A stretch of 61,350 nucleotides of DNA, counting the filler, from Hausera hauseri (lineage: Eukaryota), in the NCBI GenBank assembly GCA_046269625.1. It is 10 parts of 10 records of this genome, joined end to end, with 100 filler letters (N's around TTAATTAATTAA, not from the genome) between each part and the next. Parts side by side here need not be neighbours in the genome. Positions count along the whole stretch, not along the records: positions 45,496 to 51,494 come from JBJURY010155978.1; 9 more parts are not named here. One strand, 5' to 3'. A model generated the notes under the pieces. That model was not told the origin of the DNA. It saw nothing but the letters and a program-made list of their open reading frames with translations, and made no database searches. Each line of letters opens with the position of its first letter. The first letter of the stretch is position 1. Below, one piece after another: positions 15,401-61,350 of the stretch. The position numbers and the translations under genes were made by a program.

Positions 15401-15403
15401 GTT

Positions 15404-26438: not shown

Positions 26439-26473
26439 TGTTATTAAGGAAAACTAAGTTGTTATCCATATTA

Positions 26474-27001: not shown

Positions 27002-27050
27002 ATATAAACTAATAAACATTTATTCAGATAAGATTTATACTAAATGTTAA

Positions 27051-33961: not shown

Positions 33962-33994
33962 ATTATTCTATCTTTTAATTTTGAACGTTTGTTT

Positions 33995-34094
33995 NNNNNN
34001 NNNNNNNNNNNNNNNNNNNNNNNNNNNNNNNNNNNNNNTTAATTAATTAANNNNNNNNNNNNNNNNNNNNNNNNNNNNNNNNNNNNNNNNNNNN
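33995..34094. other. Artificial contig linker
   Basis: N44-TTAATTAATTAA-N44. Confidence 0.99.
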
Positions 34095-36950: not shown

Positions 36951-38232
36951 TGAGGCACAACCCGTGGTGGTGGAAGGAGTGTTGCGCCTACCGAGTAGAA
37001 CTAATGGCAGGATAGACGGCCAATTGCGATGATTGTCTGCTAGGGTTTTTAAAGAAATTTTCATAGTTCGATGGAATCTTTCTAGCAGGCCATTTGCTTG
37101 TGGGTGGTACGGTGTTGTGTGGAAATGTGATATCCCCAAGCGTTTAGCAAGCGATTTAAAAAGTTTCGATTCGAACTGCGGACCTTGGTCCGTTATGATA
37201 TGCCGTGGGGTCCAAAACGACTGATCCAGATTTTTATGAATGCATCTGCTACTGAATCAGTGTTTGTTGAACGGAGAGGAACGGCTTCAGGCCAGCGAGA
37301 AGCATGATCCATCATAGTAAGAATATGTTGATACCCGTTATAGGAAGATAAGGGTCCAACGAGATCAAGATGGACGGTATGAAAACGTCATTTACATGGG
37401 AAATGGTAAAGCGGCGGTTTAAGATGATTGTTGACTTTGTATTTTTGACAAACGATGCAATCCTTAACCCAACCCTGTACATCTGTAAGCATAGATGGCC
37501 AAACTACATGACGTTTGAGCAAACGAAACGTGGCTTTTGAGACTGGATGATGAAGTGAAATCGTGCGAAGGAAAGCTGGTTTCTGCAAAGGAGCGAGAAT
37601 GATTTTTTTATTACCGGGGTTAGATGTACAGTATGCAATGCCATCAGTGATTTCGAATGATTTGAAAGAGCTAAGAATATCAGCAGACGGTTGATTGAGC
37701 TTTAGAATTTCGGTAGAAAATATTGGTTCGACCGTAATTGAGCCGTTCGACCGTGACAGGAAATCCGCAACCAAATTCTCCGTACCTGAAATATACTTTA
37801 TGACAAAACTAAATGTAGATTGGTACAATATATGTCGTTCCTGCCTCGGTGATGGCTGTTTTAGTGACATAATGTGCAGCAGAGGCTTCTGATCCGTTTA
37901 GATGATAAATGAGTGAGAGAGAAGGAGATGAGTGAAATGTTTTTCTGCAAGAACTATGGCTAGTAGCTCATGATCGAATGTAGAATATCGGCTTTCTGGT
38001 TGTGTGAGTTTTCGAGAGTAAAATTCCAAAGGTTCGTCGACGCCTTTGGAAATTTTGTGTAGTATTGCACCAGTACCTGTGGAAGTGGCATCAGTGGTAA
38101 GTATTAGCTCCGCGTCGGGTTTTGGATAGGCCAGTATTTCGACGGTTTTTCGGCCTTCACGTTAGTGATCGAATTTGGTAACTAAATCAGGAGTCGATTG
38201 GATTAGCTGTCTTTTCTTTCCCAATGAGAGGT
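36950..38232 (-). mobile_element. pol: CsRn1-like RH-INT fragment, close relative of element E
   Basis: Reverse complement is near-identical to E ~31640-32920 (LKQPSPRQER, HHPVSKATF, TTPYHPQANGLLERFHR). Confidence 0.9.
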
Positions 38233-38332
38233 NNNNNNNNNNNNNNNNNNNNNNNNNNNNNNNNNNNNNNNNNNNNTTAATTAATTAANNNNNNNNNNNN
38301 NNNNNNNNNNNNNNNNNNNNNNNNNNNNNNNN
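38233..38332. other. Artificial contig linker
   Basis: N44-TTAATTAATTAA-N44. Confidence 0.99.
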
Positions 38333-38604
38333 TGCTTTATATTGTGATGTTTTGTTAGTTTGGTGAATCCGTGATTTTATACTGTGATTTTAGATTTTGT
38401 TTGCTGTTGATTTTTTATTGACCAAGTTTGTGAATTTAAATTGGGATTTTTAAATTTTAAATTTTGTTATTACAAATTTTGTTTAGACATTTAAATTGTT
38501 ATTCGAAATTCTGTTTTCACGGAAAAAAATATTTTTTAATTCGTGGTTTTATTTGATAAATTTATATTTTGATATTTTTGAATTTTTTATTTGTAAGGTG
38601 GAAC

Positions 38605-39655
38605 CTTACAATGTCGAATACCTTCGACTGATTTTTCCCTACTATACTTGTTGAATGTGACTCTGCGTGTTGTGTGTTTATGCGATATGTTTGTTTGCAG
38701 AGACTGAGGTTGGGAAAAAATTGGTAGATTTTGGGGTAGGTGTTGTGTAGTGCGAAGATGAGTCGGAATAAAGAGAAGAAGAGGATGAAGAAGAAAGAGG
38801 GATTGTTGAAGACGGATGGTTAAAGGCACTGAAAAGAATGTTAGAAAACGGAAGAGCGATGAAAGGTGTAGCGGCGGATAAAGGAAAAGAGGAAATAGTT
38901 GGAGTAGAGATTGAAATTGTATTGAGTGAAAGAGTGGAAGAGGAAGATGATACAGAAGGAGTGGTAGGAATAGAAGTAGAAAGTGTAGAAAATGATAAAG
39001 CAGGACTAGGCTCAGAAGAGGAAGGTGGAAATGATGTATCAATAGATGTAGGGATAGCAGGGAGTGGAGGCGTGAGAAAAGAGGTTGACGTGTCGGTTGG
39101 TAAGGTGTCGTCGACAAAGAAAGCGGCCTTTGAGTTGGTGATGCGTACTGTAAAGTCTTTGCCATCTTTGGAGATGATGGCGTTGTGTGAGTGTAGCTGT
39201 AACAGTTTATAGGGCCCCAGGTACTGCGGCTGAAAACACCAAGGCGCTTGATTCTTTAGCCATACGAATTTAGCCGTGTACAAATCTTCGGGTAAGTATG
39301 TTTTGTCTTTGTGAAGTATCCTGCAGAACGAATCTTTACTGACCTCGACGAAGTGATTTTGCGCCGCCCGTATTGTCTCATCCGTGGGCGTGTCATCTAG
39401 AGCCGTTAGTTCGAATAATGATCGGACAGGAGCTCCAAATAAGGCTTCAGTAGGTGAGCATCCTGTAGAAGTGGGCGGAGTGTTCCGCCAGCCGAGCAGA
39501 ACGAACGGGAGAAGATTCGTCCAACTAGTGTTGGACTCTGCCAGAATTCTTAGTGACGTTTTCAATGTTCGGTGCAAACGTTCTAGAAGGCCATTCGATT
39601 GGGGGTGATAAGGCGTAGTATGAATGTGGTGGATCCCCAATTGGTTAACAAGGGA
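38605..39655 (-). mobile_element. pol: CsRn1-like integrase C-terminus plus Ser/Thr/Pro-rich tail
   Basis: ORF 38678-39640 TTPYHPQSNGLLERLHR..GPYKL..; homologous to 42030-43070 and 54860-55880. Confidence 0.9.
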
Positions 39656-39656
39656 T

Positions 39657-42600
39657 TAAATTATCTTTCACTCTACCAAATTTCTCCTTACCTTTCCACT
39701 GGACGTTTACAGTCGCTAACGTCCAGACTGCAATTCTAGGATCCGACTTTCTCTCACACTATAATTTACTGGTTGACTGCAGTCAGCGATGTTTGAAAAA
39801 CGGCACCACTGGCGACATTTCTGGACATGTAAATAGTATTTCGACTACCGCGCAGTCGACCAGAATGCGGAAGTCAATCTTGAAAAGGTCAGCGAATAAT
39901 TCGATTTTTTATAACAACAATTCCATTTGTAAATTTTTAAATAATAATACCGATATAGGATCGAGGTTTAATGTCGATAATTGTGGTACTTCTACCAACC
40001 TTGATTCATTCGACGAAAATACCTCATCCAACACCATTTTCAATTCAACCATCTTACATCAAATACCACTTGACTGCACATCACCTAACAACTCACAAAT
40101 TGCATCTGCTACTACTTAAGCCGTTTCACCACTTTCACCAAATCTCTCACAGTTACCTACAACTTTACAGCAATTCGTCAACATATCATGTCCACGCGTA
40201 CTTAAAAAAGACCGTACCTTCACTCCCACAAACAGCACTTTATACCACATAGTCACACAGCACCAACGTCCAATACGCCAAAAAGTACGGTCTCTGTCAT
40301 CTCGCGGTAAACAGGCCGTAGAAGCCGAATTTCTTGAACTAGAACGTTTTGGCATAGTACGCCGTTCCAGATCCCCTTGGTCAACACCGTTACACGTCGT
40401 ACAAAAAAGGACGGTACTTTTAGACCATGCGGTGACTACCGACAGCTGAACAACTTGATTATCATGGATGCATATCCTTTACCACACATCAAGGATATCT
40501 TGCATCGTCTTAATTCAACCGCCATCCATTCGACTATTGATTTAGCTAAAGCATACCACCAAATACCGGTAGCACTCAAAGACACAGAAAAAACCGCAGT
40601 AACTACTCCCTTTGGCCTCTATGAATACCTGTTTATGCCATTCGGTTTGCGGAATGTCGCACAAACTTTTCAGCGGCACATCGATTTAATTCTTTCAGAC
40701 TTTCCGTTTGCATACCCTTATATCAATGATATTCTAGTCGTTTCACCTTCAGCCAAACAACACGAAGAACACCTTTGCGCAATATTCCAAGGTCTTAACC
40801 ACCATAATCTCCAAGTCAATTTCGACAAATGCCATTTCTTCAAAAAGCGCATTAACTTTTTAAGCCACGTTATCCACTCCCCAATCAGACCGCGTCGAAG
40901 CTCTTAAAAACATCCAGTTGTCACGTACAACCACCAAAATGCGTAGTTTCCTTGCCACACTACAATTTGTACATAAATACGTACCATACTGCTCGAAATT
41001 GACAGCACCATTTGCACACCTAAGCGGCGGAAAAAAACATCAGCCAATCCAGTGGACACCTGAACTGGTTGACAAATTTGACAAGCTACGCGAAGGCATC
41101 AAAACCGTAGATATTCTAGCTTTTCCCAAGCCTGATGCAGAACTCATCCTTACTACAGACGCGTCAACCACTGCAGTAGGCGCTGTACTCCACCAGATCT
41201 ACAAGGGAGAAAATCAACCACTAGAATTTTTCTCTCGCAAGCTAAGAGCACCTAAAACTAGATATTCCACGTTCGATCGAGAACTATTGGCCATCATTCT
41301 CGCTTTAAAGTATTTCTGTCACTTACTCGTCGCTCGTCATTTCATTAAACACCCTTCCACACACCAAGAACGACAAATATCATACTTATCGACATTTAAC
41401 TTTGATATTAAACAGATTAACGGGGTTAACAATTTGGTTGCTAATATTTTATCTAGGTCGGTTAGTTCGATTAATTTTTCACCAATCCTTAGGCAAGATC
41501 AACTTCAACAGAACCAGCCACCTTAGGACATGTTTAATTCTTTCAAATCTTGCACAATCGTTGACGTCGTGGCTTTAGACACTTCCAAACCAGGCCATTC
41601 GTTAATAATTCTAGCACCATTATTGCAAAGGCAAGCATTTCACAGGGTGCATTCACTACTTTTCTTTTACTCCATCGACAAGTAATATGACCGTCAATGC
41701 ATTCTGATGTGCAGGCATGGATTAAGGAGTGAGTGGCTTGTCAAAAATACAAAACAGCTAAGCATTTAAAGCCACCACTATTCCACTTTCCCTGCACATT
41801 GCGTTTTGAATCCGTGCATATCGACATTTTTGGCCCTCTTCCTTCAGACAACAGATATCAATTCATTCGCACTAAGATGGACCGTTCCTCGCGATGGCCA
41901 GAAGCCATCCCTCTGTGGAGCACAAACACCGACACCACAGCTAACGTTTTCATTTGTACATGGATCAGCAGGTTTGGATCACTTCGCTTCATCATCACGG
42001 AGCAGGATTTACAGTTTGAACCAAACCTGTTCAAATCCCTTGTTAACCGATTGGGGATCCATCACATAAATACTACGCCTTATCACCCCCAATCGAATGG
42101 CCTTCTAGAATGTTTCTACCGAACATTGAAAACGTCACTAAGAATTCTGGCAGAGTCCAACACTAGTTGGACGAATCTTCTTCCGTTTGTTTTGCTCGGC
42201 TGGCGGAACACTCCGTCCACTTATACAGGATGTTCACCTACTGAAGCCTTATTTGGAGCACCTGTACGACCATTATTCGAACTAACCGCCCTAGACTACA
42301 CTCCCACGGATGACACGGGAGGCGTAAAGTCACTTCGTCGAGGTCAGCAAAGATTCGTTCTGCAAGCTACTTCACAAAGACAAAACATACGTACTCGAAG
42401 ATTTGTAGTCGGCGAAATTCGTATGGCTAAAGAATCAAGCGCCTTGGGGTTTCCAGCCACGGTACCTGGGGCCCTACAAACTGATACAGCTGCGCTCACA
42501 CAACGCCATTATCTCTAATGGCGGCAAAGACCTTGCAGTACACATTACCAACTTAAAGCCCGCTTTCTTTGTCGACGACACCTTACCAACCGACACGTCA

Positions 42601-43255
42601 ACCTCCTTTCGCATTCCTCCACTCCCTGCTATCCCTACATCTATTGCTACACCATTTCCACCTTCCTCTTCTACGCCTAGTCCTGCTCCATTATTTTCTA
42701 CACTTTCTACTTCTATTCCTACCACTCCCTCTGTATCATCTTCCTCTTCCACTCTTTCACTCAACACAATTCCAATCTCTACTTCAACTTTTTCCTCTCT
42801 TCCTTTATCCACCACTACACCTTTCATCACTCGTTCGTCTTCTAACACTCTTTCCAATAACTTTAACCATCCGTCTTCAACAATTCCTCTTCCTTCTTCG
42901 TCTTCTTCTCTTTATCCTGACTCATCTTCGCACGAAACAACACCTACACCAAAATCTACCAATTTTTTCCCCAACCTCAATATCTGCAAACAAACACATC
43001 GCATACAAACATAACACGCAGAGTCACATTCAGCAAGTATAGCAGGAAAAAATCAGTCAAAGGTATTCAACGTCTTATTCACACTAAGCTCAGCTAACAC
43101 ACTTTTCGTTTTGGAATTTTTTCTGTGATCTTTCGCTCTTCATAGTTTTAACTTTGCCACGGGGGGTGATGCGGTGCCGGCATCGACTATCGCTCTCTGG
43201 CCCCTTTGGTTGGGCACGGCCGGGCGTCTACTGCCGGCGCGTCGGGCACATAGGG
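39657..43255 (+). mobile_element. pol: CsRn1-like Gypsy copy: partial PR, RT, RH, INT, PPT and partial 3' LTR (from 43170)
   Basis: RPCGDYR, MPFGLRN, YIND, TTDAS, DIFGPLP; GGGGGGTGA followed by TGCGGTG. Confidence 0.92.
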
Positions 43256-43899
43256 AAAACCCAGAATGAATCTGCAATTATTACCTGATCGGCCTTATTA
43301 AGATACATTTATTTGCCATATGAAAGCTAGTCTCACTAAAACCATCTTTCGTCTAACATGGTCCTTATATAAAGACAAAAAGCAACTCACTTTAGATGAG
43401 TTTCATAGTGAACTATTCTTTTCTGATGGCTTGAGCAAAGGCCAGTCCATTAATCAAATTCAAACTGTTTTCAAAAATCTCATTTACATCACGTACTCAT
43501 CAAACATCGATACACTTCCTGATATCATCAGCAGTTCTTCCGAATTTCCGGATGGTTAATTATGGAATTTGGAAAGACTTCCTATGATCAGTGATAGTGC
43601 AACTGTCAAACCGGGTGAAAAGTCAGCTAACATCAAAGTATGGCCATATGTTCCATTATGTGTCAATATCGGTATTTGCTGACAATTATCAAAACATGGT
43701 CTTGTTTAAATATCCATTATTTTTAGTTTTCGCTATCATTCAATGCTCGACGAATATTCAGTTTCAAACGTAATTTTTGATGTTTTCGTCAGCAACTGCA
43801 AAGAAGACTCTGAATTTTCTCATAGTCTAAAGTCCGAAATAAGAAAATTATTTAGAAATATACGAATATCGTGAATCCAATGTAAATCCCTTTGAAAAT

Positions 43900-44980
43900 T
43901 TAACGTCCCAAATTGACAAAACGAAATTGATTTTAATTGTTCTATCGAAGTTTTACGAGGCCTGTGCAAAATGTCGATTGGAATTGACTTATGCAAAAGC
44001 TAGAGAATCGCTTGATTTACGTTCGCATTGACGATACCAATCAGTCCATTTGGATTGAGAATTTATTGAAAAATAATCGGGTTTTGGTGGGTTGTGATGG
44101 AATTACGTCAGTTGTGGCGAATGTGAAAAATGAAATTGAAAAATTTGTTTCCGTACCTAGTCATCAAGATTCTATTTCATCCGTTCCAAATGAATCTTCC
44201 GAGATTTCTAAAATATACGAACTAATTGACGAAGTAACTCAAGGTATGTGCGAATTTCCCAATTTAACGAATCTAGCTAAGTTACGACAAACTGTCGAGA
44301 AATTTATTTATGCTATCTTAAATCCGATAATTTCTCAAAAGAAATAAAAGAATCTCAACTGTTGAAATATCTTTGTATGTTAACAGGTTGGATAAAAGAA
44401 CGAGCATTTTTTGTCAATGAACAAATGTCGGCATTGACATCGTTATGTTTCGATTTCATTCTTATTTTGACTGATCAGAGTTTTGATGTTGCTTGTACAA
44501 TTTTAAAGACGACTGATCTACCAGAAATATTTATTTAGGTAATTCAAAACGAGTCATATGCTAAAGATATTCGTTTAAAACACGTTTGAGTTGTTGAAAT
44601 ATGTAACGGGCAGCGTGCATGATATTGTACGACATTCTGGTAACGAATGTAAATTCAAAACGAAAGAATTCAAAGAATCACTTATTCGTTTCATTCAAAT
44701 CAATTCTTCTGACCAACTCGGCCTTTCATCGTTATTATCCCTGTCTTATCTTCTGGATGAAAACGACAATCACTTACTACTGGCAGCTGAAAAGACCATA
44801 ACGTTTCTCATTAATTTTATCAAAAAGGCGTTTAAATTCAACCGAAGTATATTCAACGGAATGGCACTTTGGAAATTATTGAGTGGTTTGAGCGCTACAT
44901 CAGTGAATGACGATGTTAAAGAAATAATTGGTGGTAATGAACAATTTTGCATAAATGCGAAGATTCATGTCCATCGATGA
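43900..44980 (+). pseudogene. Host-like armadillo-repeat protein pseudogene
   Basis: ILTDQSFDVAC, GSVHDIVRH, LSSLLSLSYLLDE, LLSGLSATSVNDDVKEII resemble ARM segments of invertebrate ARM(-TIR) proteins; several stops and frameshifts. Confidence 0.45.
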
Positions 44981-45395
44981 ATAAACCAGTTGTTTTAATA
45001 ATGTAATGATTTATTTTCAAGTTCACAAATTTAATTTGAATACACTTTTTTCGTCCATTGTGATTTTTTGACAACTTGATTTTAAATATCCATTTGTGAA
45101 TTTTAGAAATCTGTCTTGTGGAATTTGGTGGGAATTTCTTTATATTAAAAATTATTTTCAAATCCAATTTTTGGGAATTTATATAATATCTATATCGGAT
45201 ATTTATCGGTCAGTCCTAACTAATAAATTGGTGTCAGACAGAAACATTACCGACATTATTTCTGTGATTTGATTGTCTCTATTTTATCACTTTATCAATT
45301 TCTTTGATTTTCGTGTAAGATACAATTTCCAAACACAATGGAAGCTCATTGTATACAGCAAAATATGAAATGGAACGCAAATGGCAATGCCAATA

Positions 45396-45495: not shown

Positions 45496-46851
45496 GGGAA
45501 ATCTTGTTAATTTCAAGAATTTTATTATCTGGTTTAATGACTTGATTCTACTGTATATTCAGCACATTTAAGCGGGTCAAAGATAGCACAGGTCCAATTT
45601 AATGGAATTCGCATAGAGTTAAAAGTTTTGTAAGCTTCTAATGTTACGATCTTGAATCCGAGTATGTATTTTTCAATCTCCTTTTGTGCCAGAAGCGAAT
45701 CCACACCATTTTCTATTTGTTCCTATGTTATCGCATGTCGAATACTGTTTAAGTTATGAATATTTCTTCTAGGTGTGATGATTTGATTAAAAATAACTTC
45801 ACCGTTTTCCTCTGCTATTATCACTTCGATTGGCAAGGGTATCTGTGATCTATTTGATTTGTTTCCATAGGCGAATGAAGCTGCAAGGTATCTAGTTCTA
45901 CCTGATTTATTGGTGTACATTAAATTTGGTTCTTTTGGTAGTTCTTTATATGTTGGTTCAATCGTATATTTCAATGGTAATAAGGATGAGAGTTGTATTT
46001 CTTTTCTAAAAGCTTTTACTATTCCGATGTTTATTACTCCTTTGCGATAAATCGAATATGTTTGGTATCGATCGAATAATTGATTTGACAAGATTCCTGA
46101 CCCATAATTGTTTCAAAACTGTTTCTTCGTCCTTTTTCTCCTCTAAATATCCCATGATTTTCCCCATAGCAACATGTATTGTTGTTCCAATGTTATCTCC
46201 TGTCCATTGAGGGAATTTAAACGTAGTGTCTAAGTTGAATATTTTGAACGGTAAAATTTCGCGATTTCTTTGTTACCGTATTTCAGTACGTTCGGTATTT
46301 TGGTAACTTCTTTTATCCTATTCATTGAACAATCTAGGTGTGCCATCACCTTATCATAGAATGAGTATGTCATGCTTTTTTTCAGTTTTATTGAGTCTTT
46401 GTATAGGTTTCGGATCATCTTTCTTTGCGTTTGTTGGAATATTGTTTGGTAATTTGAAAATATCTTTACCTCCGAATTTCGGGGCCGAATTTGTTATTTG
46501 ATTGTTTCTTAATTTCGGTCCTTGAGTATTGCAATTTTTGCACATGATTTTTTGTGCGTCTTGCTGATGTTGCACATAGTTTTTATAATCCTTTAAATCT
46601 AATTTGATTGGCCAACTAATCAAATGTTCTAAATTTTTGATTGTCCTCTCCTCATTGGCTATTAACTTATAAATTGTATAAACGAACATGATTGGTCCAA
46701 TCATTATGCTCGACACGAGTATGTAATTAATCAAATTCTCCTTAAGATAACTACCAAAGTCTTTATTAACTAGAATAAAAATCAAGATAAGCACAAAACC
46801 GAACGTAGTACTTGTCGCTTCATTTACATTCTCTTCATTACTTGTTATCAT
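45496..46851 (-). pseudogene. Two-TM protein region followed by a REX4/ISG20-like exonuclease-fold domain lacking the catalytic DxE
   Basis: FGFVLILIFILV and YILVSSIMIGPIMFVYTIY; then YLAASF..IEVIIAEENGEVIFNQIITPRRNIHNLNSIRHAIT*EQIENG..AQKEIEKYILGFKIV. Confidence 0.6.
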
Positions 46852-46924
46852 GTTTGTAACTGTAGGCTCTCTATGTCCATTTTGTTCCTTAATTCTACTT
46901 AATTGTGAGCGAGGCTAATTTCCT

Positions 46925-48364
46925 CTAATTAGAGTAATGTGATTCGTCATGTTTCTTCTTTTTACATCCGGGTTTTCTACCAAATGCAATACTTATCATA
47001 AGGATTATTCCAATACCTGCTATTAATACTAATATCCACCAGTATTGCAGAATATATACTTCGCTAGTTATATTTGAAACAGTAGTTAACTTCCATTTTT
47101 CGTCATCATCATTGTATCTTATGTGACGAAATTGATCTATTGCTGGTTGTGTTTTTATGGCCACAATTTTTGAGTTATCTAAGTTCTCTATTTTCACCAG
47201 GTAATTGGTATCGGGTGTTAGTTTTTCACAGAAGTTTCTTTTATTTGTCTCGTACTTGATAGTAATTTTTTCATGAGAATCTGTACATTTACCATAATGT
47301 TTTGTTCATTTATTGTGTTTTCCGATATTATCTCAATGCGTATAGGGCGTTAATTTGAATTTGATAAAAAATTCTTTCATCCATTTTCCATAAAATACAT
47401 GTTTATGTAATTTCTGTTTTAACGTATGTGGCTGTTGATCCTGTATTTTAAACTGATTTTGTGGTTTAAGCTGAACTTGTGACTTTGATTTGAGATTTTG
47501 ATTTCGATTGAGATTTTGATTTCGATCTCGGTTTTCTCGGTCTCCCCTACCCTTATAGGTGGATGTAGTTCATAATTTCGGTGTTGTCGTCTGTGTCGCA
47601 GATCGCGGAGAAGTAATGCGCTGCTCGGTGAAAGCTGGAATGGGTATGTTTTATTTGACTGAAAATAAAAGAGGAATGCGGTAAGAATGCACTCTAATTG
47701 ATTGTCTATTTTCCATCGTTTGATATGCATCTAAACGGATTCTGTATTAGATGTAGAGTGTACAACATGAACGACTATCATTTCGCTTCAGATAACAATA
47801 ATGTGGTTGTTTTATGAATGTAGATATTGAGTCGAGCCATATGCTGACTTCAAATACAATAGGTAATAACCGTGTGTTGCGGAAATCCATACAAGGTCGT
47901 TGTCTTGTGAAATCGATACTAGAAAATTCGATATCATGTTTTAAGAAGTAAGCAATAAAAGGATTGCGCGAAAATACATCAATAGTTTCTAATATGTTCA
48001 TCTCTTGATAGGTGGGAACATGAAGAATCATTTGGATCCTGAAGAATGGTATCGGTATTATTGACCTTCAGTATACATAGTACGTGTACGTCGAATCGTA
48101 TTTGATGGAGCAGCAAGTTCTATTATGTGTTTCAAAAATTGTACATACCGAGGAAACATTATACTGTGATTTAAAGACAAAATCAACTTTATGGTGCATT
48201 GTTACCGGCATGTGAGTTCGAAGGCAAATACTGGGTTTATTTGTGTCAATATTGATAATAGTGGCGCGTTCAATCAAATTAGTAAGTGGTATAGCTATTG
48301 TATTGGTTTTTGTAGCCGTTATAGGTATTATGAATACTAGAAAAATGAGGAAAATGATAGCCAA
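46925..48364 (-). pseudogene. Type I membrane protein: signal peptide, two Cys-rich repeats, low-complexity stalk, FN3-like domain, TM, basic tail
   Basis: Single frame with point stops: LAIIFLIFLVFIIPITA|; RTCCSI / RSCCTL repeats; EKLTPDTNYLVKI..AIKTQP (FN3 LxPxTxY); YWWILVLIAGIGIILMISIAF-GRKPGCKKKK. Confidence 0.65.
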
Positions 48365-48399
48365 GTATCGGCTCTAAATGAAATGAACAGGGTAATGTT

Positions 48400-51300
48400 C
48401 TGAGGTATGTATCGAGTGAGTTTTGCGCAGTGCTGCTACTTTGGGCTCTTATGTTTTGGGTGATTCGAGCTCTGCTTCGCGTATGAAATCGTTATATGAT
48501 GTAGGTGCTCGAGTTACTCGTTGAACAGACACGGCCTCGTATTTATCAGGTCCTTTCTGAATGAAAAGCGTTTGTGGACGCACATCAACAACTTTGTACA
48601 ATCCTTAGCCTGTACGTGTTAATTTTAACGATTTGCCTTTCTTTACTGCAGGGTAGTGAACCATTATGTAATCTCCAATCTTGTAAGTATGCGGTCGGGC
48701 TTTCTTGTTAAATTGCTTTTTATATCCGGCTCTGTATTTTTCTTCAGTTTTGCTTCGCGTTGAAAGCATTCGAGTCGTTTTAGTAAAATCTGGTATTGAT
48801 CATCCATGTGGTCGCTAGTTAACAAGGATGATGGTAGCAATTCCGTATCCAGTGGCAGCAAAGGTAATCTGCCAAACATTAACTCAAAAGGTAAATGATT
48901 AGTACTTTTAGTAGGTGTAGTATTAATTGCAAAGGCCGTGGTTTACAAATGGTTATGCCAATCCTTTTGATCATTTGCTACCTTTGTTGAAAGGTTACCC
49001 TAGATGGTACGATTCATTCTTTCAACCATACCGTTACATTGTGGATGGTATGATGTCGTTAACAAATGTTTGCACTGGAATATTTTTGACAATTTTTCAA
49101 GGAATTCGCTAATGAAATATGGTGCACGGTCGGTTAACAACTGTTTCGGGGTGCCCAGTACAGCAATAATTTCGTAGAAGGCTTCAGCAACCGTGCTACT
49201 CGTCATGTTTTTAATGGCCCTAGTATAACGTAGCGAGAATAGTAGTTAAAAAGTGACAGTATGTATTTGTATCATGAGTCTGAAGCTTGGAAGGATCCGG
49301 AGATATCCATTGAACACACTTCCATTGGCTTCCGTGCTTCAGGTAAGCTTCCTAAGAACGGTTTTACGTGAAATCCTCTATCTTTTCCTGTAGCACATAT
49401 TTTACACGAACGTATCCATCCTTCAATATGCTTATTCATTTGAGGCCAGAAATATTTTGCGGTTATACGCTTCAAAGTCTTGTTTAAAGATGGATGTCCA
49501 GCCAAGTGTAATTCGTGTTCTTGTAGCATGACAGCCTTGATGGCCGGTGTGGGTACAAGGATCAGTTTTTTTCTCCGACTCAGTCGTAAAATGCCATTTT
49601 CTGTTTTAAGATTTTCTCGGTTCTTTTCATAAAATTTTTGAATGTGACCCGATATTGAGTCAAGTAATTGTCCATTAATTAATAGTTTGATTTTAACAAT
49701 AAAAGGATCTTGGTTTTGTAAGTTCTCGATATTGCTTACTTGAATTTGGCGTTGTTCTTGCAACATATCATTAATGATTTTCTCATTCAGTTGTTTATTG
49801 TTTGCATTATCTAATGGTTTATAAACTGCAGCTACAATCTTATCGTATGGCATTTTCAAAAGCGCGTTAGCGTCTATGTTTCCTTTGCCAGGACGATATC
49901 GATATTCAAGATTATAATTCAAAAGTTCCAACTTCCATCTTTAGAGTCGGCTTGATGCATGTTTGGTGTCTGAGCGTAAAGATAATAGTGCCTTATGATC
50001 AGTAAATATTATGACTTTATGACCGTAAACGTAATACTCGTAATGTCGCAATCCATCACGAATAGCTAGTAACTCTAATTCAGTGGTTGAGTATTTTCGT
50101 TCTGTATTATTTAAACTACGTCCTACGTAGGCGATGACATTCTCAGTTGTTTCTTCTCGATTCTGCTGGGCTAATATATAACTAATAGCTTTTATGCTGG
50201 CGTCGGTTTTCAAAATAAATGATAACGAGAAATCTCGGTATCTCAATATAGGTGCTGATACCATTCGTTTCTTGATCTCGTCAAATGCATGTTGATTCTC
50301 TTCTGTCCATTCCCATTTGTGATCCTTTCGTAATAGTTTATATTGAAGCTGGTTAATTTCCGCAAAGTCAGGTATAAACGTAGCATAAAATCCTCCCAAA
50401 CCTAACCAGGCTTTCATTTCGTGCACGTTTTTTTGGTGGGGGATATCCCAATATTTTGGATATTAAATCATGACTAGTCAAAATTACTTGGTTGGAAACA
50501 ACAAATGCAAGATATCTAACCTCTTTCTTGCACCATTCACATTTTTTTCGGATTTAACTTTAATTTCGCAAGTTTAATTCGATCAAATACTTCTTTTAAT
50601 TCAGCTAAATGTGCAGACCATGTCTTAGATGCGATGAGAAAGTCGTCAATGCATGATAAACCTCGTACTCCTTTTAGCACCAGGCGAATAAATTCTTAAA
50701 AGAACGTGGATGCTGTTTTTAAACCGAATCGCATACGAGTGAATTGGTAGACTCCGGTGTGGGTCTTGAATGCAGTTTTCCATCGGTCTTCTTCGGCCAC
50801 GGGGATTTGCCAAAACCCACTTTGTAAATCTAATGTGGTGAAATATTTACAATCTTTGAGTTCATCTATAATATCTCGTATTAGGGGAATCGGATAAGCG
50901 TGATTCATCAAGTGCTTATTTAAGGTAACGTAATTTACACAAACGGTGTTTAGTCGTATTAGCCTTCTTGGCCATAACTATGGGAGAGGACCATGGCGAT
51001 TGACTTGGTTCTATAATACCTTTATCGAGCATAGCTTGAATTTGCTCCTCAACTTCCTTTTGGAGTGCTTTTGGAGGAGGGTACCATTTTGGTATAGGTT
51101 GTCGCAATAAATCTATTTATTATCCTGTTACCGGGTCAATCATAAATGATAATTTGAATTTGACTAAATGAGACCGCCCGATATCTGTTTCATTTTTTGC
51201 AAATGTCAAAATACTCAAAAATGAGATCTGAGAAGTTTTCTAGAAACTCATCTGATAAATTTTTCTTCGCTTTTGCGAGAACAACGTTTAATATATCTCC

Positions 51301-51594: not shown

Positions 51595-54500
51595 CGCCAC
51601 TATTTTCTCAATGCGCTACCTGTCCAAATCCGGGCCCTACTTACCGTGGTGGAGGACTCCACACCGCTTGATAAATTGGCCGAATTGGCCGATAGGACAC
51701 ACGATGTCATACATGTAAATTCTCCACCAGTAGTTTCAGCAGCAGTTGCCGCTAACGATAATACATCTATAAAACAACAGCTTAATCAGCTGTGTGCTGA
51801 AAACATTGCACTACATGCAACAATAAACAATATCAATAATAAACTAAACAAATTGTCTATGTCCGGCCGAGGGGGTTTTGCTGCTGACCGCGCCCGTTCT
51901 ACGTTCAAAAACCGCTCAACATCGCCTGCTCGATCATTGATGTGCTATTACCACAGCAGATTCAACACTAATGCCCAGAAGTGTTGCCTAGGATGCAAAT
52001 TTTATAACAAGAGTTTTTCCTCGGACACCATTGTTTGCATCTACCATGCAAGGTTCAAAAATCAGGCTCGTAAATGTCTTCCAGGCTGCACTTTCAAACC
52101 AAATACGAATGACGGACGTACTGCCTTTCCTTCAAATATTCGTCCTAATTCACCCTTTTAAAAAAATTAAGTTCGCCCGCCAGAAGTCACGGTAAACTCT
52201 GGCAAAGGCATTACTTCACTCTGAATGCCGACATGTCTCTTTTGCTGTCGTTACTCTAAAGGCTGTAATGACTGCTCCTACAACGCAATCTGTTGACTTT
52301 TTCATCGATATAGGTGCAGCGATTTCTCTACTACCACAAACCTTTCCTACACAAAATACTCCATTCAAGATCAAATCCTTATACATTGCTTCAAGCCAAC
52401 CGCTGCACATCTTCGGCTCGACTAAATTATCTTTCACTCTGCCGAATTTTTTTCACCCTTTCACTGGACGTTTACAGTCGCTAACGTCTAGTTGGAAATT
52501 CTAGGATCCGACTTTCTCTCACATTATAATTTACTGGTTGATTGCAGTCAGCGATGTTTGAAGAACGGCATTACTGACAACATTTCTGGACATGTAAATA
52601 TCATTTCGACTACCGCGCAATAGACCGGAACGCAGAGGTCAATCTTAAAAAAATTAGCGAATATTTCGAATTTTCATAATAATTCTATTCGTAAATTTTT
52701 AAATAATAATATCGATATACGATCGAAGTTCGATGTCGATAATTATGGTACTGCCACCAAAGTTAACTCATTCAACGAAAATACTTCATCCAACACCATT
52801 TTCAATTCAACCATCTTACACCAAATACCACTTCACTGCACATTACATAACAACTCACAAATTGCATCAGCTACTACTCAAGCCGTTTCACTACTTCCAC
52901 CAAATCTCTCACAGTTACCTACAACTTTACAGCAATTAGTCAATGCATCATGTTCACGCGTACTTAAAAAGACTGTACTTTGACTCCGCAGACAGCACTT
53001 TACACCACATAGTCACACAGCATCAACGTCCAATAGGCCAAAAGTACAGCATCTGTCTCATCGCCGTAGACAGGCCGTAGAAGCCGAATTTCTCGAGCTA
53101 GAACGTTCCGGCATAGTACGCCGTTCTAAATCTCCTTGGTCATCACCGTTACACCTTGTACAAAAAAGGACGGTAGGTTTAGACCATGCGGTGACTACCG
53201 ACAGCTTAACATCTTGACTATCATGGATGCATACCCTTTACCACTCATCAAGGATATCTTGCATCGTCTTAATTCAACCACCATTTATTCGACCATTGAT
53301 TTAGCTAAAGCATACCACCAAATACCGGTAGCACCCGAAGACATAGAAAAAACCGCAGTAACTTCTCCTTTTGGCCTCTATTAATACCTATCCATGCCAT
53401 TCGGTTTGCGGAATGCCGCACAAACTTTTCAGCGGCACATCGATTCAATTCTTGCAGATTTCCCGTTTGTATACCCTTACATCGATGATATTCTAGTTGT
53501 TTCATCTTCGGCCAAACAACACGCGAAACACCTTCGCGCAATATTCCAACGTCTTAGCCACCATAATCTCCAAGTCGTTTTCTACAAGTGCCAATTTTTC
53601 GAAAAGCGCATTAACTTTTTAGGCCACGTTATTACACCAGACGGTCATTCTCCACAATCAGACCAAGTTGAAGCTCTTAAAACATCCAGTTGCCACGTAC
53701 GACCACCGAAATGCATAGCTTCCTTGGTACACTACACTTTGTACACAAATACGTCCCATACTGCTCCGAATTGACGGCGCCATTCGCACACCTAAGCGGC
53801 GGCATAAAACGTCATCCAATCCAGTGGACGCTTGAATTGGTTGACAAATTTGACAAGCTACGCGAAGGAATCAAAAATGTCGATATTCTAGCTTTCCCCA
53901 AGCCTGATGCAGAACTCATCCTTACTACTGACGCGTCAACCACTGCCGTAGGTGCCGTACTCCACCAGATCTACAAGGGAAAACCAATCACTAGAGTTTT
54001 TCTCTCGCAAGCTAACATCACCTGAAACCAGATATTCCACGTTCGATCGAGAACTATTGGCCATCGTTCTCGCTTTAAAGCATTTCTCACATCTACTTGT
54101 CGTTCGTCATTTCACTCTACAAACTGATCACAAGCCCTTACTTAACATCATTGCCATGAAACACCCTTCCATACACCAAGAACGACAAATATCATACTTT
54201 TCGACATTTAACTTCAATATTAAACATATTAACGGGGTTAACAATTTAATTGCTGATTTTTTATCTAGGTCGATTAGTTCTATTAATTTTTCACCGATCT
54301 TTATGCTGGATCAACTTCAACGGAACCAGCCATTTTAGGACTTGCTTAATTCTTTTAAATCTTGAACAATCGTTGACGGCATGGCTTTAGACACCTCCAA
54401 ACCAGGCCATTCAGTAATAATTCTAGCACCATCATTGCAAAGGCAAGCATTTCACAGCGTGCATTCGTTACACCATCCTGGTGCTAAAGCCACTTCTCGT

Positions 54501-56119
54501 TTACTCCATCGACAAGTAACATAGCCGTCAATACGTTCTGATGTGCAGGCATGGGTTAAGGAGTGTGTGGCTTGCCAAAAATACAAAACATCTAAGCACT
54601 TAAAGCCACCACTATTCCACTTTCCGTGCACATCCGTGAATATCGAAATCGTTGGCCCTCTTCCTCCAGAAAACGGTCATCAATTCATCCTCACCATGAT
54701 GGAACGTTCCTCACGATGGCCAGAAATCATGCCCCTGCGGAGCACAAACACCGACACCATAGTTGACGTTTTCATTCGCACATGAATTAGTAGGTTTGGA
54801 TCACCTCGCTTCATTATCACGGACCAAGGTTCCCAGTTTGAGTCCAACCGGTTCAAATCCCTTGTTAAATAATCCACCATATTCATACTACGCCTTATCA
54901 ACCCCAATCGAATGGCCTCCTAGAAGGTTTCCACCGAACATTGGAAACGTCACTACGAATCCTCGCAGAATCCAACACTAGTTGGACGAATCTTCTTCCA
55001 TTCGTTCTGCTCGGCTGGCGGAACACGTCGTCCACTTCTACAGGATGCTCACTTACTGACGCCTTATTCGGAGCTCCTGTACGATCATTATTCGATCTAA
55101 CAACCCTAGACGATACCCCCACGGATGAGAAGATACGAACGGCACAAAATCACTTCGTCGAGGTCAGCAAAGATTCGTTCTGCAGGATACTTCACAAAGA
55201 CAAAGCATACTTACCCGAAGATTTCTATTCGGCAAAATTCGAATGGCTGAAGAATCAAGCGCCTTGGAGTTTCCAGCCACGGTACCTGGGGCCCTACAAA
55301 CTGATACAGCTACATTCACATAACGTCATTATCTCCAAAGACGTCAAAGACCTTACAGTACACATTAGCAACTCAAAGCCTGCTTTCTTTGTTGACGACA
55401 CCTTACCAACCAACACGTCAAGCTCTTTTCTTACTCCTCCACTCCCTGCCATCCCTACATCTATTGCTACGCCATTTCCACCTTCCTCTTCTACGCTTAG
55501 TCCTGCTACATTATTTTCTACACTTTCTACTTCTATTCCTACCACTACTTTTATATCATCTTCCTCTTCCACTCTTTCATCCAACACAATTCCAATCACT
55601 ACTCCAACCTTTTTCTCTCTTCCTTTATCCGCCACTACACCTTTCATCACTCATTCGTCTTCTAACACTCTTTTTAATGCCTTTAACCATCCGTCTTCAA
55701 CAATCCCTCTTCCTTCTTTGTCTTCTTCTTCTCTTTATCCTGATTCATCTTCGCACGACACAACACCTACACCAAAATCTACCAATTTTTCCCCAACCTC
55801 AATCTCTGCAAACAAACACACCGCATAAACACAGAGTCACATTCAGCAAGTATAGCAGGGAAAAATCAGTCGAAGGTACCCAATGCCTTATTCACACTAA
55901 GATCAACTGACACAAACACTTTTTGTTTTGCGATTTTTCTGTCCTTTTTTTACTCTTCATAGTTCTCACTTTGCCACGGGGGGTGATGTGGTGCCCGCGT
56001 CGACCGTCGCCCTCTGGCCCATTCGGTTGGGCACGGTCGAGATTCCGCTGCCGGCGCATCGGGCGCATAGACAGGCTCCAATTTTCTGCCTCGAAGCGGC
56101 ACAATACGATTACACCAAA
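51595..56119 (+). mobile_element. Element I: CsRn1-like Gypsy copy (gag-PR-RT-RH-INT-PPT-3'LTR)
   Basis: CYYH..C...C twice; FFIDIGA; RPCGDYR; YIDD; TTDAS; integrase core; PPT 55978-55986. Confidence 0.92.
55987..56119 (+). repeat. Short 3' LTR of element I
   Basis: TGTGGTG directly after the PPT and CACCA near 56117; homologous to 43170-43255. The right end is uncertain. Confidence 0.6.
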
Positions 56120-56331
56120 AGCTTGTAATTCATTTTAAATGGATGAATCAAAACGGCTAGATGAAACAATTTGGTTATCAAACAGTCCAATTTTCATAAA
56201 TTGTATTATAATAAAATATATGTACACTTATATTCGAAGCATTATCGACCAATAATTCAGTATTTATCAAAAGACGTCATCCGAAGCTGAAAAATGGCTC
56301 AATAAATCTATGTATGACCACAACTTTAGTT

Positions 56332-56431: not shown

Positions 56432-56900
56432 CGTTTTTCGTTATTTACACCTCGGCATCAAATACACCGTAAATGTACATCAAGGTAGATTACTCCAACG
56501 CTTTAGCAAAGTGAACATCCAATCGCGGATTTCCCTGTTGAGGTAATTGAGCCTGCTCAACGTCATAATCCGGAGTCACGATAAAGGTGAAGAATGGATA
56601 GGTTGACTTGAACAAATCCATCGATATGCCATTGTTGACATTTTTGTTCAGCAAACCAATATTTCGCACAATAGATTGCATATATGTACAAACATAATCA
56701 TTATACTCAAAGACTTCTCAACGTCTCAACTAAATCCGCATTCCGACCCAAACTGATGTAATTCACATTGCTATGGGTAAACGTTTCCTTATCGGTCGTA
56801 TAACTGCCCGTTTGTTGAAAAGTCGTTTGAAATGTAACAAGTACCAATTTCGGCATTCGCATGTCACCAAACAATGAGTCCTTGTAAAACGTTGTCGAAC
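56432..56900 (-). pseudogene. Polinton major capsid protein, C-terminal part
   Basis: Homologous to 14007-14290 (STTFYK..FGDMRMPK..NNGISMDLF..RLDVHFAKAL). Confidence 0.88.
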
Positions 56901-59900
56901 AGTCCGTCAGAAGACTGTAGCACTTTGGGCGTTAGAATATCCATTCCCAATACCGAACACGACCTTGACTTTCATCCTCGAAGCAACCAATTTTATTGGT
57001 GATCGCGCTGCTGTACAACGGATGATCCGGTGGGTAGTTGGACGTGTCCAGTAATCCATCTGACTGCATTTGCTGCAGTAGCTGTTCGCAGTTGACGTTT
57101 TCCAGTTCCAAGAAAAAACTATCTATCACTGGCAATTATATTGATCTTGCATCCGCCGCCGAACATTTGACGGTAACGTGCCAAATCGCGATACTGCAGC
57201 TCATACATCCGCTACTTACTCGGGTCCAATACCACTTGTCCGATGTAACTTGGCCGGTCCAGAACGACTTCTTCCCTGTTTAACAGCACCGCAACCAATC
57301 CATAGGCAATGTGCATTGACCGCCAAAACTGTGCCTCACTGGTATACGCAACCACCCGCTTTTCCGAGTTACATAGGCGCACATTGAACCGCTTTTTCAG
57401 ATTCTCCACTGTTTTTCTGTAAAGGGAATTGTTTTTCATCTTGTAGTAGCCCTTTTGGAACTTTGTACAAGCTGCGGCTAGTTTCTCCGAATTCCCGTCT
57501 ATGTACGCCTTGAATATGGGAGCCTGAGTAAATCGAATTGCACGATGCAGCTGTGACACGTACACCGAGCTACATGTAGAACTGTAGCAGACGCCAATGG
57601 ACCATATAATTCAGCTTCGGTTCATGCGTCATAAACAGTTTCTTCACTTTTGAGACTGGCGGACATTGTTTAATGGTGCGACCGGTAAATCGTCCAAAAC
57701 GTCATGCATCTTATCCGGTACCACGAGATCGACCTCCATCAGGTATCCGACTAAGCCTACCATGTCTGCTCGTGGTAAGATGACCATTATATCGTTCAGA
57801 TCTTCTCTGTCGACAACCCATTCAAATGAACTGTACGCAAGAGCTGCGAAAGCGCCCAGGCGTACAGGTTATTAATATCATTATACATCAGTGTTGTGGT
57901 ATCGGTAGCACTGACCTGGTGCTTGTTGACAAATGTCATGTCGCCGCGAATACCAACATCAAACAGCCGGTACATTTCCGAGTCTTTCAGCAGCTCAATG
58001 TCTCGATCCAGCAACATTAGACCTAACGCCCAACTCATTCCCGGTATGGAATAAAAATTGATCGACTCCAACCTATCTTCTGCCAGCACTTTGGTCCGAA
58101 ATGCTTCGAACACCTCGGCTAATACACGTCCGGTTTAAGATACTGGAGCATGTAATCCAACATATTTCTACAGCCCAGTTCTATCCAAGATTCTTGTGCT
58201 CTCCGATATCCATCTTCTGTGATATCTGTCCATCGCGACGGTAATTCCTCTGCTGCCCGGAGTCGCTCATATAATGTTGCAAAGTCATGTAAATATACCT
58301 TCGCTGCGTGCAATATGTGCAGGGAACTGCGTCAGTGCTATCAGCACATCTGGCAAAGCACTAACCAGCTTTGCCAATGATTCAGTGAGAAATTGCAATG
58401 AATCAAGGAAGCGTACCTGGAATCGGTTTACTCGTGCCGACAGCGATAGGTATTTCTCCATTATCGTTGGGATTATGGAGAGTTCCCAGTGCGGAAAGCC
58501 GTTAATGGCCTATTTGAGAATATGGTGACAGTCAACCTCAAAAATTATGAAAGATCATCGGAAGGAATGTTCGCTCTCGCCTTGTTGAATTGCATGAATT
58601 ACATGCTTCTCCCAAGTATCGACCGGTGAAATGATTGTGATCCGGTACGAGCCGTTCCTGTGCATCAAACGGTATTATTTTGTGGCACAGATGGTATTCA
58701 TCGGTGACAGCGAAAAGCAACGGTTGATATTCGTTTGCCCAAATCAATGGCTTATTGCAATTGTTGCGATACCTGGGCGCAATTTCCGTTTACACTATGG
58801 TTTCCATCTACTGCAGGAAATCACTTAGAGTTCCAACTATGGAAAATGTAATACTGGTTGGCCGGCGGCTTCTATCGGTACTAGCAACATACCGACGGCA
58901 ATTAGAACGTGCTTTTTATCGTATACATTGTGCCGCGGTAGAATTACTTCGATATTGGCATACACCACATATGCCTGCCTATCCGTTTTAGACCAATCAC
59001 TGAACCTGAGCTCCTTTTTTTACGTGCATGACGAACATTGTTGTTCCTGATGCGTTTTGCCTGCTTAGCGTGACATGTTTCTTCCACGTTGTTTCCGATT
59101 TGAATTCATAGACATACAGTACACAATTTGCATGGTATTCGCTTTTTGATGAACAGGTCATGCTCCATGTTCAACAATCTATCCAGATTTGTCACTGCCA
59201 CGTAATGAAATTTTTCAGCCTCTCCAACAGCAACAAATTTACCGTGCGTCCATTCGGGTTCCGACTACGATAAATTATGTCCACATGGAGTTCTTATAAA
59301 TTTCTTCATCTTCCGGTATTTCAATTAGTGTTGTACCGGAAAACGTTGATTGACAGCATCAGATTAAGCAGTTCAAAAGCAGGAATGGTTTTCAGTTTCA
59401 TCGGCATCCAGCATTCATCAAATTGCAATTCGGAAAAATACTGCCGATACTGATTTCGACGATTTTCATGATCTGCTCACTTCGCTGTACTTTAATACAC
59501 CCAGAATACTGTAAGAAAACAGTATTCGTCGTTAGTATTTTGTACATTCACTACCACCAGACTGCTTTAGAGATGCAGGTGTCGGTATGAATGACCGTCC
59601 AGACAAATACATCACGTCAACCGACTTTGCTATGATAAAACCGAGTGTGACTACTCGTATAATTCGCCATTCACTACCCTTTTCGGTATAGTTGGCGATT
59701 TTCTCATCCAACTTTTCGCCTACATCGGTAATAAAATCTTCCGAATACGGTACGGCTCGATGTGACATGTACCATTGTTTCCTGTCACCTTCAACGTTTT
59801 TAAACTCTGCAAGTGCATAATATTGCACTTTGCAATTGTTGCGTTTGAATTTCTCCACCTCTAATTCCAACCGGCTGCGCACACCGGACGAAACATGTCT

Positions 59901-60146
59901 CAGCTGTAATTTTGTTGTCTCCGATATGTTAACTTTCATATCCACGTACGATTTGTTTAGATCGCACTTGACAGTAATGGAAGGTTCCTGCTGTTGCATC
60001 TGCTTCTGTTCAGTACTGTTTCGGATGTATTCGTCAAGACTTGTTGAGGCCTGACGTTTTCTGCTTGTTAAGAGGATACTAATAATCTTGTCGCCATCAC
60101 TATTTCCTTTTTGGACTGCTGAAACTGGTTCAAGTGATCCTTGCAC
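56901..60146 (-). pseudogene. polB: Polinton protein-primed family B DNA polymerase, C-terminally truncated
   Basis: GSEWRI..SFIPTP; DHNHFTGRYLGEACNSCN; FHNF; RFLDS; YLKPDV; GIRGD; YNDINNLY; KMKNNSLYRKTVEN; IGCFEDE; RPKCYS. Confidence 0.92.
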
Positions 60147-60424
60147 TGGTTATAAAATTGTTCATAATTGATTTCATCAATTATCGAACAACCGGGACAA
60201 ACGTAGGCCCGTTTACCGTGTACCGTTGTGGCACCATAGTATTGCTCCATTACACTATGGCAACCATCAACGTCATGTACTCTACAACTACAGTATCGCG
60301 GGTGTGTGGGGCAATGCACAACTATCATCTTCTTTGCACGCGTCAACGGGCCAAGATGATGCTTGTGCATCGCATAAAAGTCGGGGTATGGACAAGGGGC
60401 CGAAATACTACCGCACATTGGCAC
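60068..60424 (-). CDS. Small Cys/His-rich hypothetical protein upstream of polB
   Basis: ORF track; CxxC-like motifs; function unknown. Confidence 0.3.
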   Translation of the reverse strand: MPMCGSISAPCPYPDFYAMHKHHLGPLTRAKKMIVVHCPTHPRYCSCRVHDVDGCHSVMEQYYGATTVHGKRAYVCPGCSIIDEINYEQFYNQCKDHLNQFQQSKKEIVMATRLLVSS

Positions 60425-60699
60425 AAATATGAGTTCGTGCCAACGGTGTAATATTTAGCCATCTGCTGATGGCACTGCTCCTGCTTCGCATGTATGTGCG
60501 AGACGCAATACATGGGATAATTAGTACACATCTGAATGGAAAACAAAATAAAATAAATGTTTTATATTAAGTTGTAAATGCCATAAATTGAAATATGACA
60601 ACTTATTTGTTGATCTTGAGAATAAAAAGTCTCCTTACGCCCTTATAAACAATTATTCTAAACGCTACAACAACAACAACAACAACAACTAAAAATCAC

Positions 60700-60975
60700 A
60701 TGGAACAGTACATTGAAAGCGAGATTAAGAAATTGACCGATGACATTTTGACTGGATATATGTTTGATGTTCAGGTTTTGTGTGAGCTCGCAGAAACAAG
60801 AATAATTAGTCGACAGGAATATATTGAATTAATTATCAAATCTCTATTCATACAACGTATCAAACATGAAATGAAACGAAAACGGCAACAACAGCGACGG
60901 ATTAATTTCCTCATTGGACTTGTTTTTTCTTCTTCGCTTTGTATTGTAATGAAAACGTTGATTGACCGTATTTAA
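60700..60975 (+). CDS. Small hypothetical protein with C-terminal hydrophobic segment
   Basis: Intact 91-aa ORF preceded by a (CAA)n leader; KRKRQQQRR then INFLIGLVFSSSLCIVM. Confidence 0.4.
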   Translation: MEQYIESEIKKLTDDILTGYMFDVQVLCELAETRIISRQEYIELIIKSLFIQRIKHEMKRKRQQQRRINFLIGLVFSSSLCIVMKTLIDRI

Positions 60976-61350
60976 TCATACATTTGTACATATTTTGTTA
61001 CGTTTGTTTTCGTGAATCAATATAATTTATTTCTCGTGTCTTTTTTGTTGTTGTTACATTTTAGTATAAATACTTATGCTTAGTTACGGCATGACATTAC
61101 GACATGTCCCATTTATCAGAACTCATTTGTTTGTATCACTCCTTCGACGATCTCCGGAGTTACCTTTACAATCTTGACCGACCTTTACACGATGCACGAT
61201 ACTGTTCTCCAGAAGAGATACTCCGGCGTGCTGAAAAGATTTGGAGGGCACGGGAACCTTATCTATGATATATGAACAGGTTGGTGGTGACATGGACATG
61301 ATATTCTGTCAGATTTTTCGCACATGGCTGAAATTGGCGGATACCTATGC

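Follow-up and report, generated by a model that had tools for sequence, protein, structure and literature searches.

A candidate receptor-like membrane-protein gene behind the integrase of a decayed Ty3/gypsy element from Hausera hauseri

INTRODUCTION

The env gene of gypsy is expressed from a spliced RNA (PMC4276936), the env open reading frames (ORFs) of Drosophila elements obtain their start from an upstream exon (10.1101/2023.08.03.551782), and the ORF3s of rotifer elements are typically spliced (PMC5408684). In errantiviruses of nematodes, bryozoans and flatworms the order is gag / gB-type env / pol, and the entry of these gB-carrying elements is presented as unexplained, herpes gB being in need of partner glycoproteins (PMC13524379). 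Here we analyse a Ty3/gypsy element in a 61,350-nucleotide stretch of DNA from Hausera hauseri (GenBank assembly GCA_046269625.1), referred to at its full length as the window, together with a membrane-protein gene that follows the integrase of this element. The window joins ten contigs, and the gene lies on the minus strand of the contig at 45496-51494. We read the locus as a multi-copy Ty3/gypsy element with a broken accessory gene behind the integrase, encoding a predicted type I glycoprotein with three likely FN3-type domains that is probably made separately from a spliced message and likely serves attachment or adhesion; to this reading as a whole we give a probability of roughly 0.45.

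RESULTS

The frame behind the integrase holds the parts of a membrane protein

On the minus strand, the frame from 48715 to 46928 leads from the integrase tail through two stops into a hydrophobic leader-like stretch, SRYLAIIFLIFLVFIIPITA, and on through two 4-Cys domains, a stalk, a third domain, a transmembrane (TM) helix and a basic tail (Table 1). Nine stops fall in this frame: one in the integrase tail, two at the junction and six in the membrane-protein module. For the 482 codons of the module, six stops compare with 31.2 ± 5.1 expected from shuffles, and none of 2000 shuffles was as low in any of the six frames. The initial annotation had the integrase frame running on, through two point stops, into a membrane module. 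The common frame, the YKVV tail and both stops are indeed there, but the whole frame holds more stops than these two, and one continuous frame is doubtful at 47270-47430. In this interval, which spans the first half of domain 3, the window frame has no similarity to the homolog described below, and another frame matches it weakly (score 31, 12/1000 shuffles, three frames tried). Compensating frameshifts may lie there, and the N/Q-rich stalk may have been read partly out of frame; the T/N/Q-rich stalk of the initial annotation stands in its composition (Q/T/K/R/N-rich), with its frame partly in doubt.

Hydropathy alone predicts a type I topology, with peaks in the leader and in the C-terminal TM helix, the latter followed by a basic cytoplasmic tail of about 15 residues. 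The leader-like stretch, called from hydropathy and not with a signal-peptide predictor, has by sequence a small residue at its putative cut site and, as had been noted before, no ATG; the earliest one in frame is at 48211, within domain 1. The ectodomain stalk carries predicted N-glycan sites. An RGD in the stalk was considered as a meaningful motif and rejected, being absent from the homolog and placed where the frame is doubtful. The stalk also contains an 18-bp tandem repeat at 47490-47526, and copies differ in length at 47480-47535.

Module and pol occur together in a multi-copy element

Pfam matches place reverse transcriptase (RT), RNase H and integrase in this order on the minus strand of the contig, which is the Ty3/gypsy (Metaviridae) order; the pol copy is decayed, with frameshifts and stops. 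Its integrase C-terminal module matched the integrase tails of seven gypsy loci (tblastn, E 0.003-0.019). The contig (about 6 kb) is cut at both ends and starts just upstream of RT, and no repeat pair that could be long terminal repeats (LTRs) was found within it.

When the contigs of a public sequencing run were surveyed, 6899 of them aligned to the studied contig at 80% likeness and covered 30 of its 30 bins; 5075 of the 6899 were less than 95% identical to the window copy. Summed depth over the module was 400-934, against about 3-12 for a single listed contig, and 16, 35 and 29 contigs covered three listed places within it. Some single contigs reach from the integrase tail or junction into the leader and beyond, one over 48256-48551 (43 differences, no gap) and another over 48117-48492 (one gap). 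The module therefore moves with pol in a multi-copy family rather than being one host gene at its flank; the initial annotation had named an unrelated host gene as what would overturn it, and on that point the copies speak otherwise. We conclude that the membrane-protein gene is very probably real and element-borne.

A single intact homolog shares domain order and Cys pattern

A phmmer search of 1.84 billion representative proteins gave one match, P0002 (E 4.6e-10, 26% identity), an uninterrupted ORF of 479 amino acids (aa) with its own Met just before the leader; it is a singleton from a contig of 4,939 bases. P0002 keeps the domain order of the window gene, and its ten ectodomain Cys follow the same 4+4+2 pattern, eight of them in identical alignment columns. 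All three domains matched their counterparts when compared one by one (z scores in Table 1). Compared directly with each other, the two Cys repeats of the window copy gave a non-significant z of 1.5, and through P0002 they gave 8.9 and 9.2. The two Cys-rich repeats, four Cys each, that had been proposed from the window alone are therefore alike by way of P0002 and not in direct comparison; judged by these alignments, D1 and D2 are repeats.

Further searches returned nothing comparable. A word-index homolog search with the module gave 0 matches among 2260 candidates, one with P0002 found only itself among 3335, and one over 3163 longer candidates found three generic gypsy pols (28-43%), none with the module. 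The module was absent from two viral (0/2) and 124 metagenome (0/124) stretches, and the 53 gypsy loci gathered by RNase H showed similarity neither to the module nor to the downstream ORFs nor to the fusogen (0/53).

The three domains are probably FN3-like

Pfam assigned no family, and no FN3 (PF00041), to the window protein, to P0002 or to single window domains (E up to 10 or 1). An L-x-P-x-T-x-Y loop, which we take to be the FN3 loop before strand F, is LTPDTNY in the window and, in the aligned position, LSPQTEY in P0002; the FN3 signature reported initially is therefore present in letters, without a Pfam match behind it. For a full-length AlphaFold2 (AF2) model, 45 of the 47 listed Foldseek rows (best E 3.5e-3) were chains of fibronectin or of FN3-type receptors, as judged by titles and known domain content. 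D2 was the one domain of D1-D3 to be folded alone: the homologous D2 (AF2, three rows) reached a predicted local distance difference test (pLDDT) score of 67.4 with seven strands, and its neighbours were FN3 domains, cytokine receptors and other immunoglobulin (Ig)-like sandwiches (best Foldseek E 0.041). With values of 0.86-0.89, Atlas features of the homologous D3 pointed towards fn3 clusters, which we take as no more than a lead. The structural check suggested at the outset, AlphaFold and Foldseek of the repeats, thus gave a seven-stranded D2 and lists dominated by FN3 chains, but modest values throughout (Z ≤6.6). In a viral structure library nothing reached E 0.001 (best 0.026). CatSper epsilon, the best PDB sequence match with a two-row profile (E 0.04, also E 0.059), was judged a chance match. 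Taken together, lines of evidence that are each non-significant alone converge, which suggests three FN3-like domains, where the initial annotation had named a single one; in our estimate such a fold is probable.

No F or gB fusogen profile matched the window protein or P0002, and the same Pfam library finds PF24664 in a related element (see below). In agreement with the initial annotation, which had called the protein unlike known env types, it therefore belongs to neither the F nor the gB type of Env. Class I cytokine receptors carry a WSxWS motif; it is absent from both the window protein and P0002.

A related element in the window carries a fusogen

The contig at 5139-13906 holds, on the plus strand, a decayed gag / PF24664 fusogen / pol element, with PF24664 (Monjiviricetes-type) at 9288-11329 (E 1.5e-34). 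About 2.5 kb of ORF remnants without a family lie between its gag and env. Its pol and the studied pol are 43-49% identical in their best segments, and an RNase H tree of 43 rows, which took 35 of 51 loci matches and left out 16 short or identical rows, grouped both with a starfish pol at 99/96. The chuvirus-like fusogen that had been ascribed to the family is thus present in this relative, and was seen only there.

Table 1. Features of the contig at 45496-51494, in minus-strand order
Feature	Position	Strand	Basis
Reverse transcriptase piece, decayed Ty3/gypsy pol	50555..50941	-	Pfam RVT_1 E 2.3e-21
RNase H and integrase zinc finger	49275..50462	-	Pfam RT_RNaseH E 1.4e-29, Integrase_H2C2 E 2.6e-16
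Integrase core, second half, frame-shifted copy	48751..49239	-	Pfam rve E 0.005, under cut-off; 2 stops/163 codons
Integrase C-terminal module (YKVV region), one stop 48605-48607	48506..48715	-	tblastn and translation
Junction, 44 codons, stops 48449-48451 and 48374-48376 (TAG after pyrimidine tract, candidate splice acceptor)	48374..48505	-	translation, acceptor scoring, decay statistics
Signal-peptide-like stretch SRYLAIIFLIFLVFIIPITA, without ATG	48314..48373	-	Kyte-Doolittle 19-window 2.65
Domain 1 (D1), 4 Cys, likely FN3-like beta-sandwich; stop 48068-48070	48008..48265	-	z 11.0 to P0002 D1; tandem-FN3 Foldseek matches of low-confidence model
Domain 2 (D2), 4 Cys, likely FN3-like beta-sandwich; stop 47747-47749	47660..47929	-	z 10.6 to P0002 D2; AF2 model of homologous domain
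Stalk of low complexity (T-rich at first, Q/N/K/R-rich further on) with 18-bp tandem repeat; frame doubtful in part	47408..47647	-	
Domain 3 (D3), FN3-like, carrying LTPDTNY; broken in its first half (stops 47333-47335 and 47306-47308)	47144..47407	-	z 9.0 to P0002 D3
Single transmembrane helix	46973..47047	-	Kyte-Doolittle 2.81; helix 430-467 in homolog model
Short basic cytoplasmic tail, one Cys, stop TAG 46925-46927	46925..46972	-	sequence
Next accessory ORF, 186 codons stop-free, hydrophobic N-terminal half, starts 10 bases past the membrane gene's stop	46357..46914	-	no family match; multi-copy like the module
Further decayed ORF, cut by contig end	45498..45899	-	DEDDh-exonuclease-like by eye

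Other elements

The last ORF of Table 1 had no Pfam or PDB match, and its DEDDh label is our assumption. The nine spacers of the window (the first at 5039-5138) each read N44-TTAATTAATTAA-N44, so adjoining segments are not genomic neighbours. A Burro-like element occupies 19720-28256 on the minus strand. It has BIR (E 8e-8) and RING (E 1.6e-10) domains at 27054-28074, followed by gag-like and long ORFs without a family; at about 20800-19720, what looks by eye like the beginning of a gB-like fusogen has no Pfam match. Capsid, ATPase-like and polymerase-like remnants of Polinton/adintovirus type were recognized by eye at 14007-19619 and 56432-61350, with 86%-identical stretches common to both. 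Several copies of a smaller gypsy family (pairs 88-90% identical) with a long purine/pyrimidine-skewed tail lie at 28357-45395 and 51595-56331; one of them is followed by a scrap of a host-like helical-repeat gene at about 43900-45000, without a Pfam match. A further Ty3/gypsy locus, L002:780-8681, of a lineage unrelated to the studied element, is an intact single ORF of 2634 aa in which gag, pol and integrase are followed by a second aspartic protease (residues 1919-2010); the same frame then runs on through an internal signal stretch into an env-like ectodomain, in which furin-like sites were recognized by eye, and a TM.

DISCUSSION

Polyprotein part or separate gene

The junction of 44 codons bears on how the protein would be made. 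The coding parts of the window copy hold 11 stops in 1240 codons, and two stops within the junction have a P-value of 0.059 under decay, or 0.035 at the pol-only rate. The second of them, a TAG, is preceded by a pyrimidine tract and stands in phase 0 to the leader's opening codon; by a crude, home-made score taken from sequence alone it ranked 4 of 327 minus-strand AG sites as an acceptor, the three better ones lying inside hydrophobic coding stretches. We put the chance that the module is a separate ORF expressed by splicing at about even. Because of the excess of junction stops, the acceptor-like second stop and the stand-alone P0002, a polyprotein is less likely, and the evidence suggests that a separate gene is the likelier arrangement. 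The initial annotation had proposed the former, a module with an internal signal peptide: both junction stops would then be decay, and the C-terminal part of the polyprotein would be freed by signal peptidase. The leader without an ATG fits this, as does the frame shared with the integrase (1 in 3 by chance), and one diverged copy keeps the integrase phase over the junction without gaps. Fusions of this kind occur in Burro elements, whose env is in frame in a giant polyprotein (PMC6431247), and since the intact L002 runs its integrase into an envelope in frame, the same is conceivable for the window element. No integrase-fused homolog was found, however, by phmmer over proteins of any length, one stop falls exactly on the acceptor-like AG, and P0002 has its own start; we consider the polyprotein rather unlikely. 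It is improbable that the module is instead a separate ORF which needs no splicing and whose own start codon was lost in the decayed window copy. P0002 has its Met directly ahead of its leader, and the divergence of the aligned contigs makes loss of a start plausible, but a decay stop beside the lost start would be needed too, and the acceptor-like context would be left unexplained.

Attachment, decoy or passenger

A signalling domain would not fit into the short tail, and the product would therefore be a binding protein unable to signal alone. We tentatively favour a role in attachment or adhesion, since gB-type fusogens need partners, since how elements that carry them enter cells is said to lack an explanation (PMC13524379), and since TM proteins other than env drive retrotransposon spread (PMC11952523). 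The same protein could act on the host surface as a receptor decoy or modulator, binding a host ligand or blocking superinfection. In its favour, cytokine-receptor ectodomains are frequent among the structural neighbours of D1-D2, a tail this short could not signal, cytokine decoy receptors are encoded by viruses (PMC5998005), and related elements in the window carry the host-modulating BIR and RING domains. The structural matches (Z 5-6.6) nonetheless do not tell cytokine receptors apart from FN3 or Ig-like domains of other kinds, neither sequence has WSxWS, and viral decoys are mostly secreted (PMC5998005) whereas the window protein and P0002 keep a TM; we hold a decoy to be somewhat unlikely. 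FN3 membrane proteins are common among host genes, and an intronless host gene might have been captured as a passenger of no use to the element. Yet no host homolog appeared among the 1.84 billion representatives, P0002 alone matching; the gene has a fixed place tight behind the integrase, with further ORFs of similar depth after it; and its Cys pattern is common to a homolog of 26% identity, so that capture without use seems quite improbable.

Several observations weigh against the reading that we prefer, an accessory gene expressed by splicing and active in attachment. P0002 is known from its ORF alone, not from flanking genes, and its leader is under the 1.6 hydropathy threshold. The copy survey used the contigs of one run, perhaps the source sample of the window, and depth in it is not copy number. 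The full-length AF2 model is poor (pLDDT 39.7) and serves as a lead only; significance for FN3 was missed in Pfam, in Foldseek and in the wide structural search (VIA), in which the best match of D2 (Z 6.6) was a bacterial DUF3244 Ig-like protein. The pyrimidine tract before the candidate acceptor may be mere hydrophobic codons, and the phase kept in one diverged copy speaks for fusion. In the RNase H tree the studied pol joined the fusogen-bearing pol only at 86/20, and fusogen and module do not share a contig here, as the studied contig stops before the env position and the contig at 5139-13906 before the integrase.

A possible mode of action

Under the preferred reading, the integrase would end at either junction stop, and splicing of a subgenomic RNA, with the TAG at 48374 as acceptor, would bring in a start codon from an upstream exon, as in errantivirus env genes. 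Signal peptidase would remove the leader, leaving a disulfide-bonded D1-D2 pair held up by a glycosylated stalk, with D3 and the membrane beneath. This pair might bind a host surface ligand and so bring particles or producer cells against a target cell. Fusion itself would be left to a separate gB-like Env, of the kind seen only in the related element. Such two-component entry, with a chuvirus/gB-like fusogen between gag and pol and a three-FN3 receptor-binding glycoprotein after the integrase, is an unlikely but specific proposal made by analogy. Its receptor-binding part would correspond to herpesvirus gD or the attachment proteins of paramyxoviruses. If true, the proposal would provide the targeting step apparently missing from gB-type errantiviruses.

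Comparison with known systems

The errantiviruses with a GAG-ENV-POL order and an HSV/gB-type Env (HSV being herpes simplex virus) (PMC13524379) also have a Ty3/gypsy pol, and the window pol nearest to the studied one belongs to the gag / PF24664 fusogen / pol element. An FN3 membrane gene behind the integrase does not come up in what we drew on from that paper, and term counts were zero ('fibronectin' in text and 7 supplements, 'FN3' in the supplements); in the studied contig, the upstream fusogen is outside the view. The env/ORF3 genes of Drosophila gypsy, ZAM, springer and idefix (PMC4276936, 10.1101/2023.08.03.551782) resemble the window gene in their post-pol place, signal peptide, ectodomain and TM, and their start comes from splicing. 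The parts of these sources used describe F-type fusogens, whereas the window protein has no fusogen profile match and is predicted to be all-beta and FN3-like.

Family-specific accessory ORFs after pol, typically spliced, are also known from bdelloid Vesta, Juno and TelKA and include TM proteins and DEDDy exonucleases; the TM ORFs are 210-230 aa with other architectures, and 'fibronectin' occurs 0 times in the text available (PMC5408684). The giant planarian gypsy Burro/GYPSM1 has many accessory domains, env between gag and pol, and accessory ORFs that may be separate or in the polyprotein. Its env is F-type, its giant size and single polyprotein are features not seen in the studied contig, and the account as available describes no FN3 module and has 'fibronectin' 0 times (PMC6431247). 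The sORF2/FAST-like proteins of the MDG1 group are non-env TM accessory proteins with a juxtamembrane basic tail, sometimes encoded downstream of pol, that aid cell-to-cell spread; they are described as 63-107 aa without a folded ectodomain (PMC11952523), against about 480 aa and three domains here.

The top structural neighbours of the predicted domains are FN3-type cell-surface receptors (fibronectin and the gp130, LIFR, IL-7R and IL-31R chains). Identity to them is mostly below 15%, with Z ≤5.7 in the wide search, and, apart from the missing WSxWS, the window protein has its own CC-containing Cys pattern and lacks a signalling tail.

In a search of open-licence PMC and bioRxiv, we found no report of an FN3-type receptor-like glycoprotein ORF in an LTR retrotransposon. 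The gene is real, and as an accessory gene for a surface protein in a Ty3/gypsy family it seems not to have been described before. The intact, natural P0002 opens the way to structural and binding work on it. As a second, receptor-like surface protein it is a candidate for the targeting missing in gB-type elements, or else the first receptor decoy encoded by a retrotransposon. Accessory ORFs after pol are known already; a likely FN3-type, receptor-like surface protein among them appears to be new.

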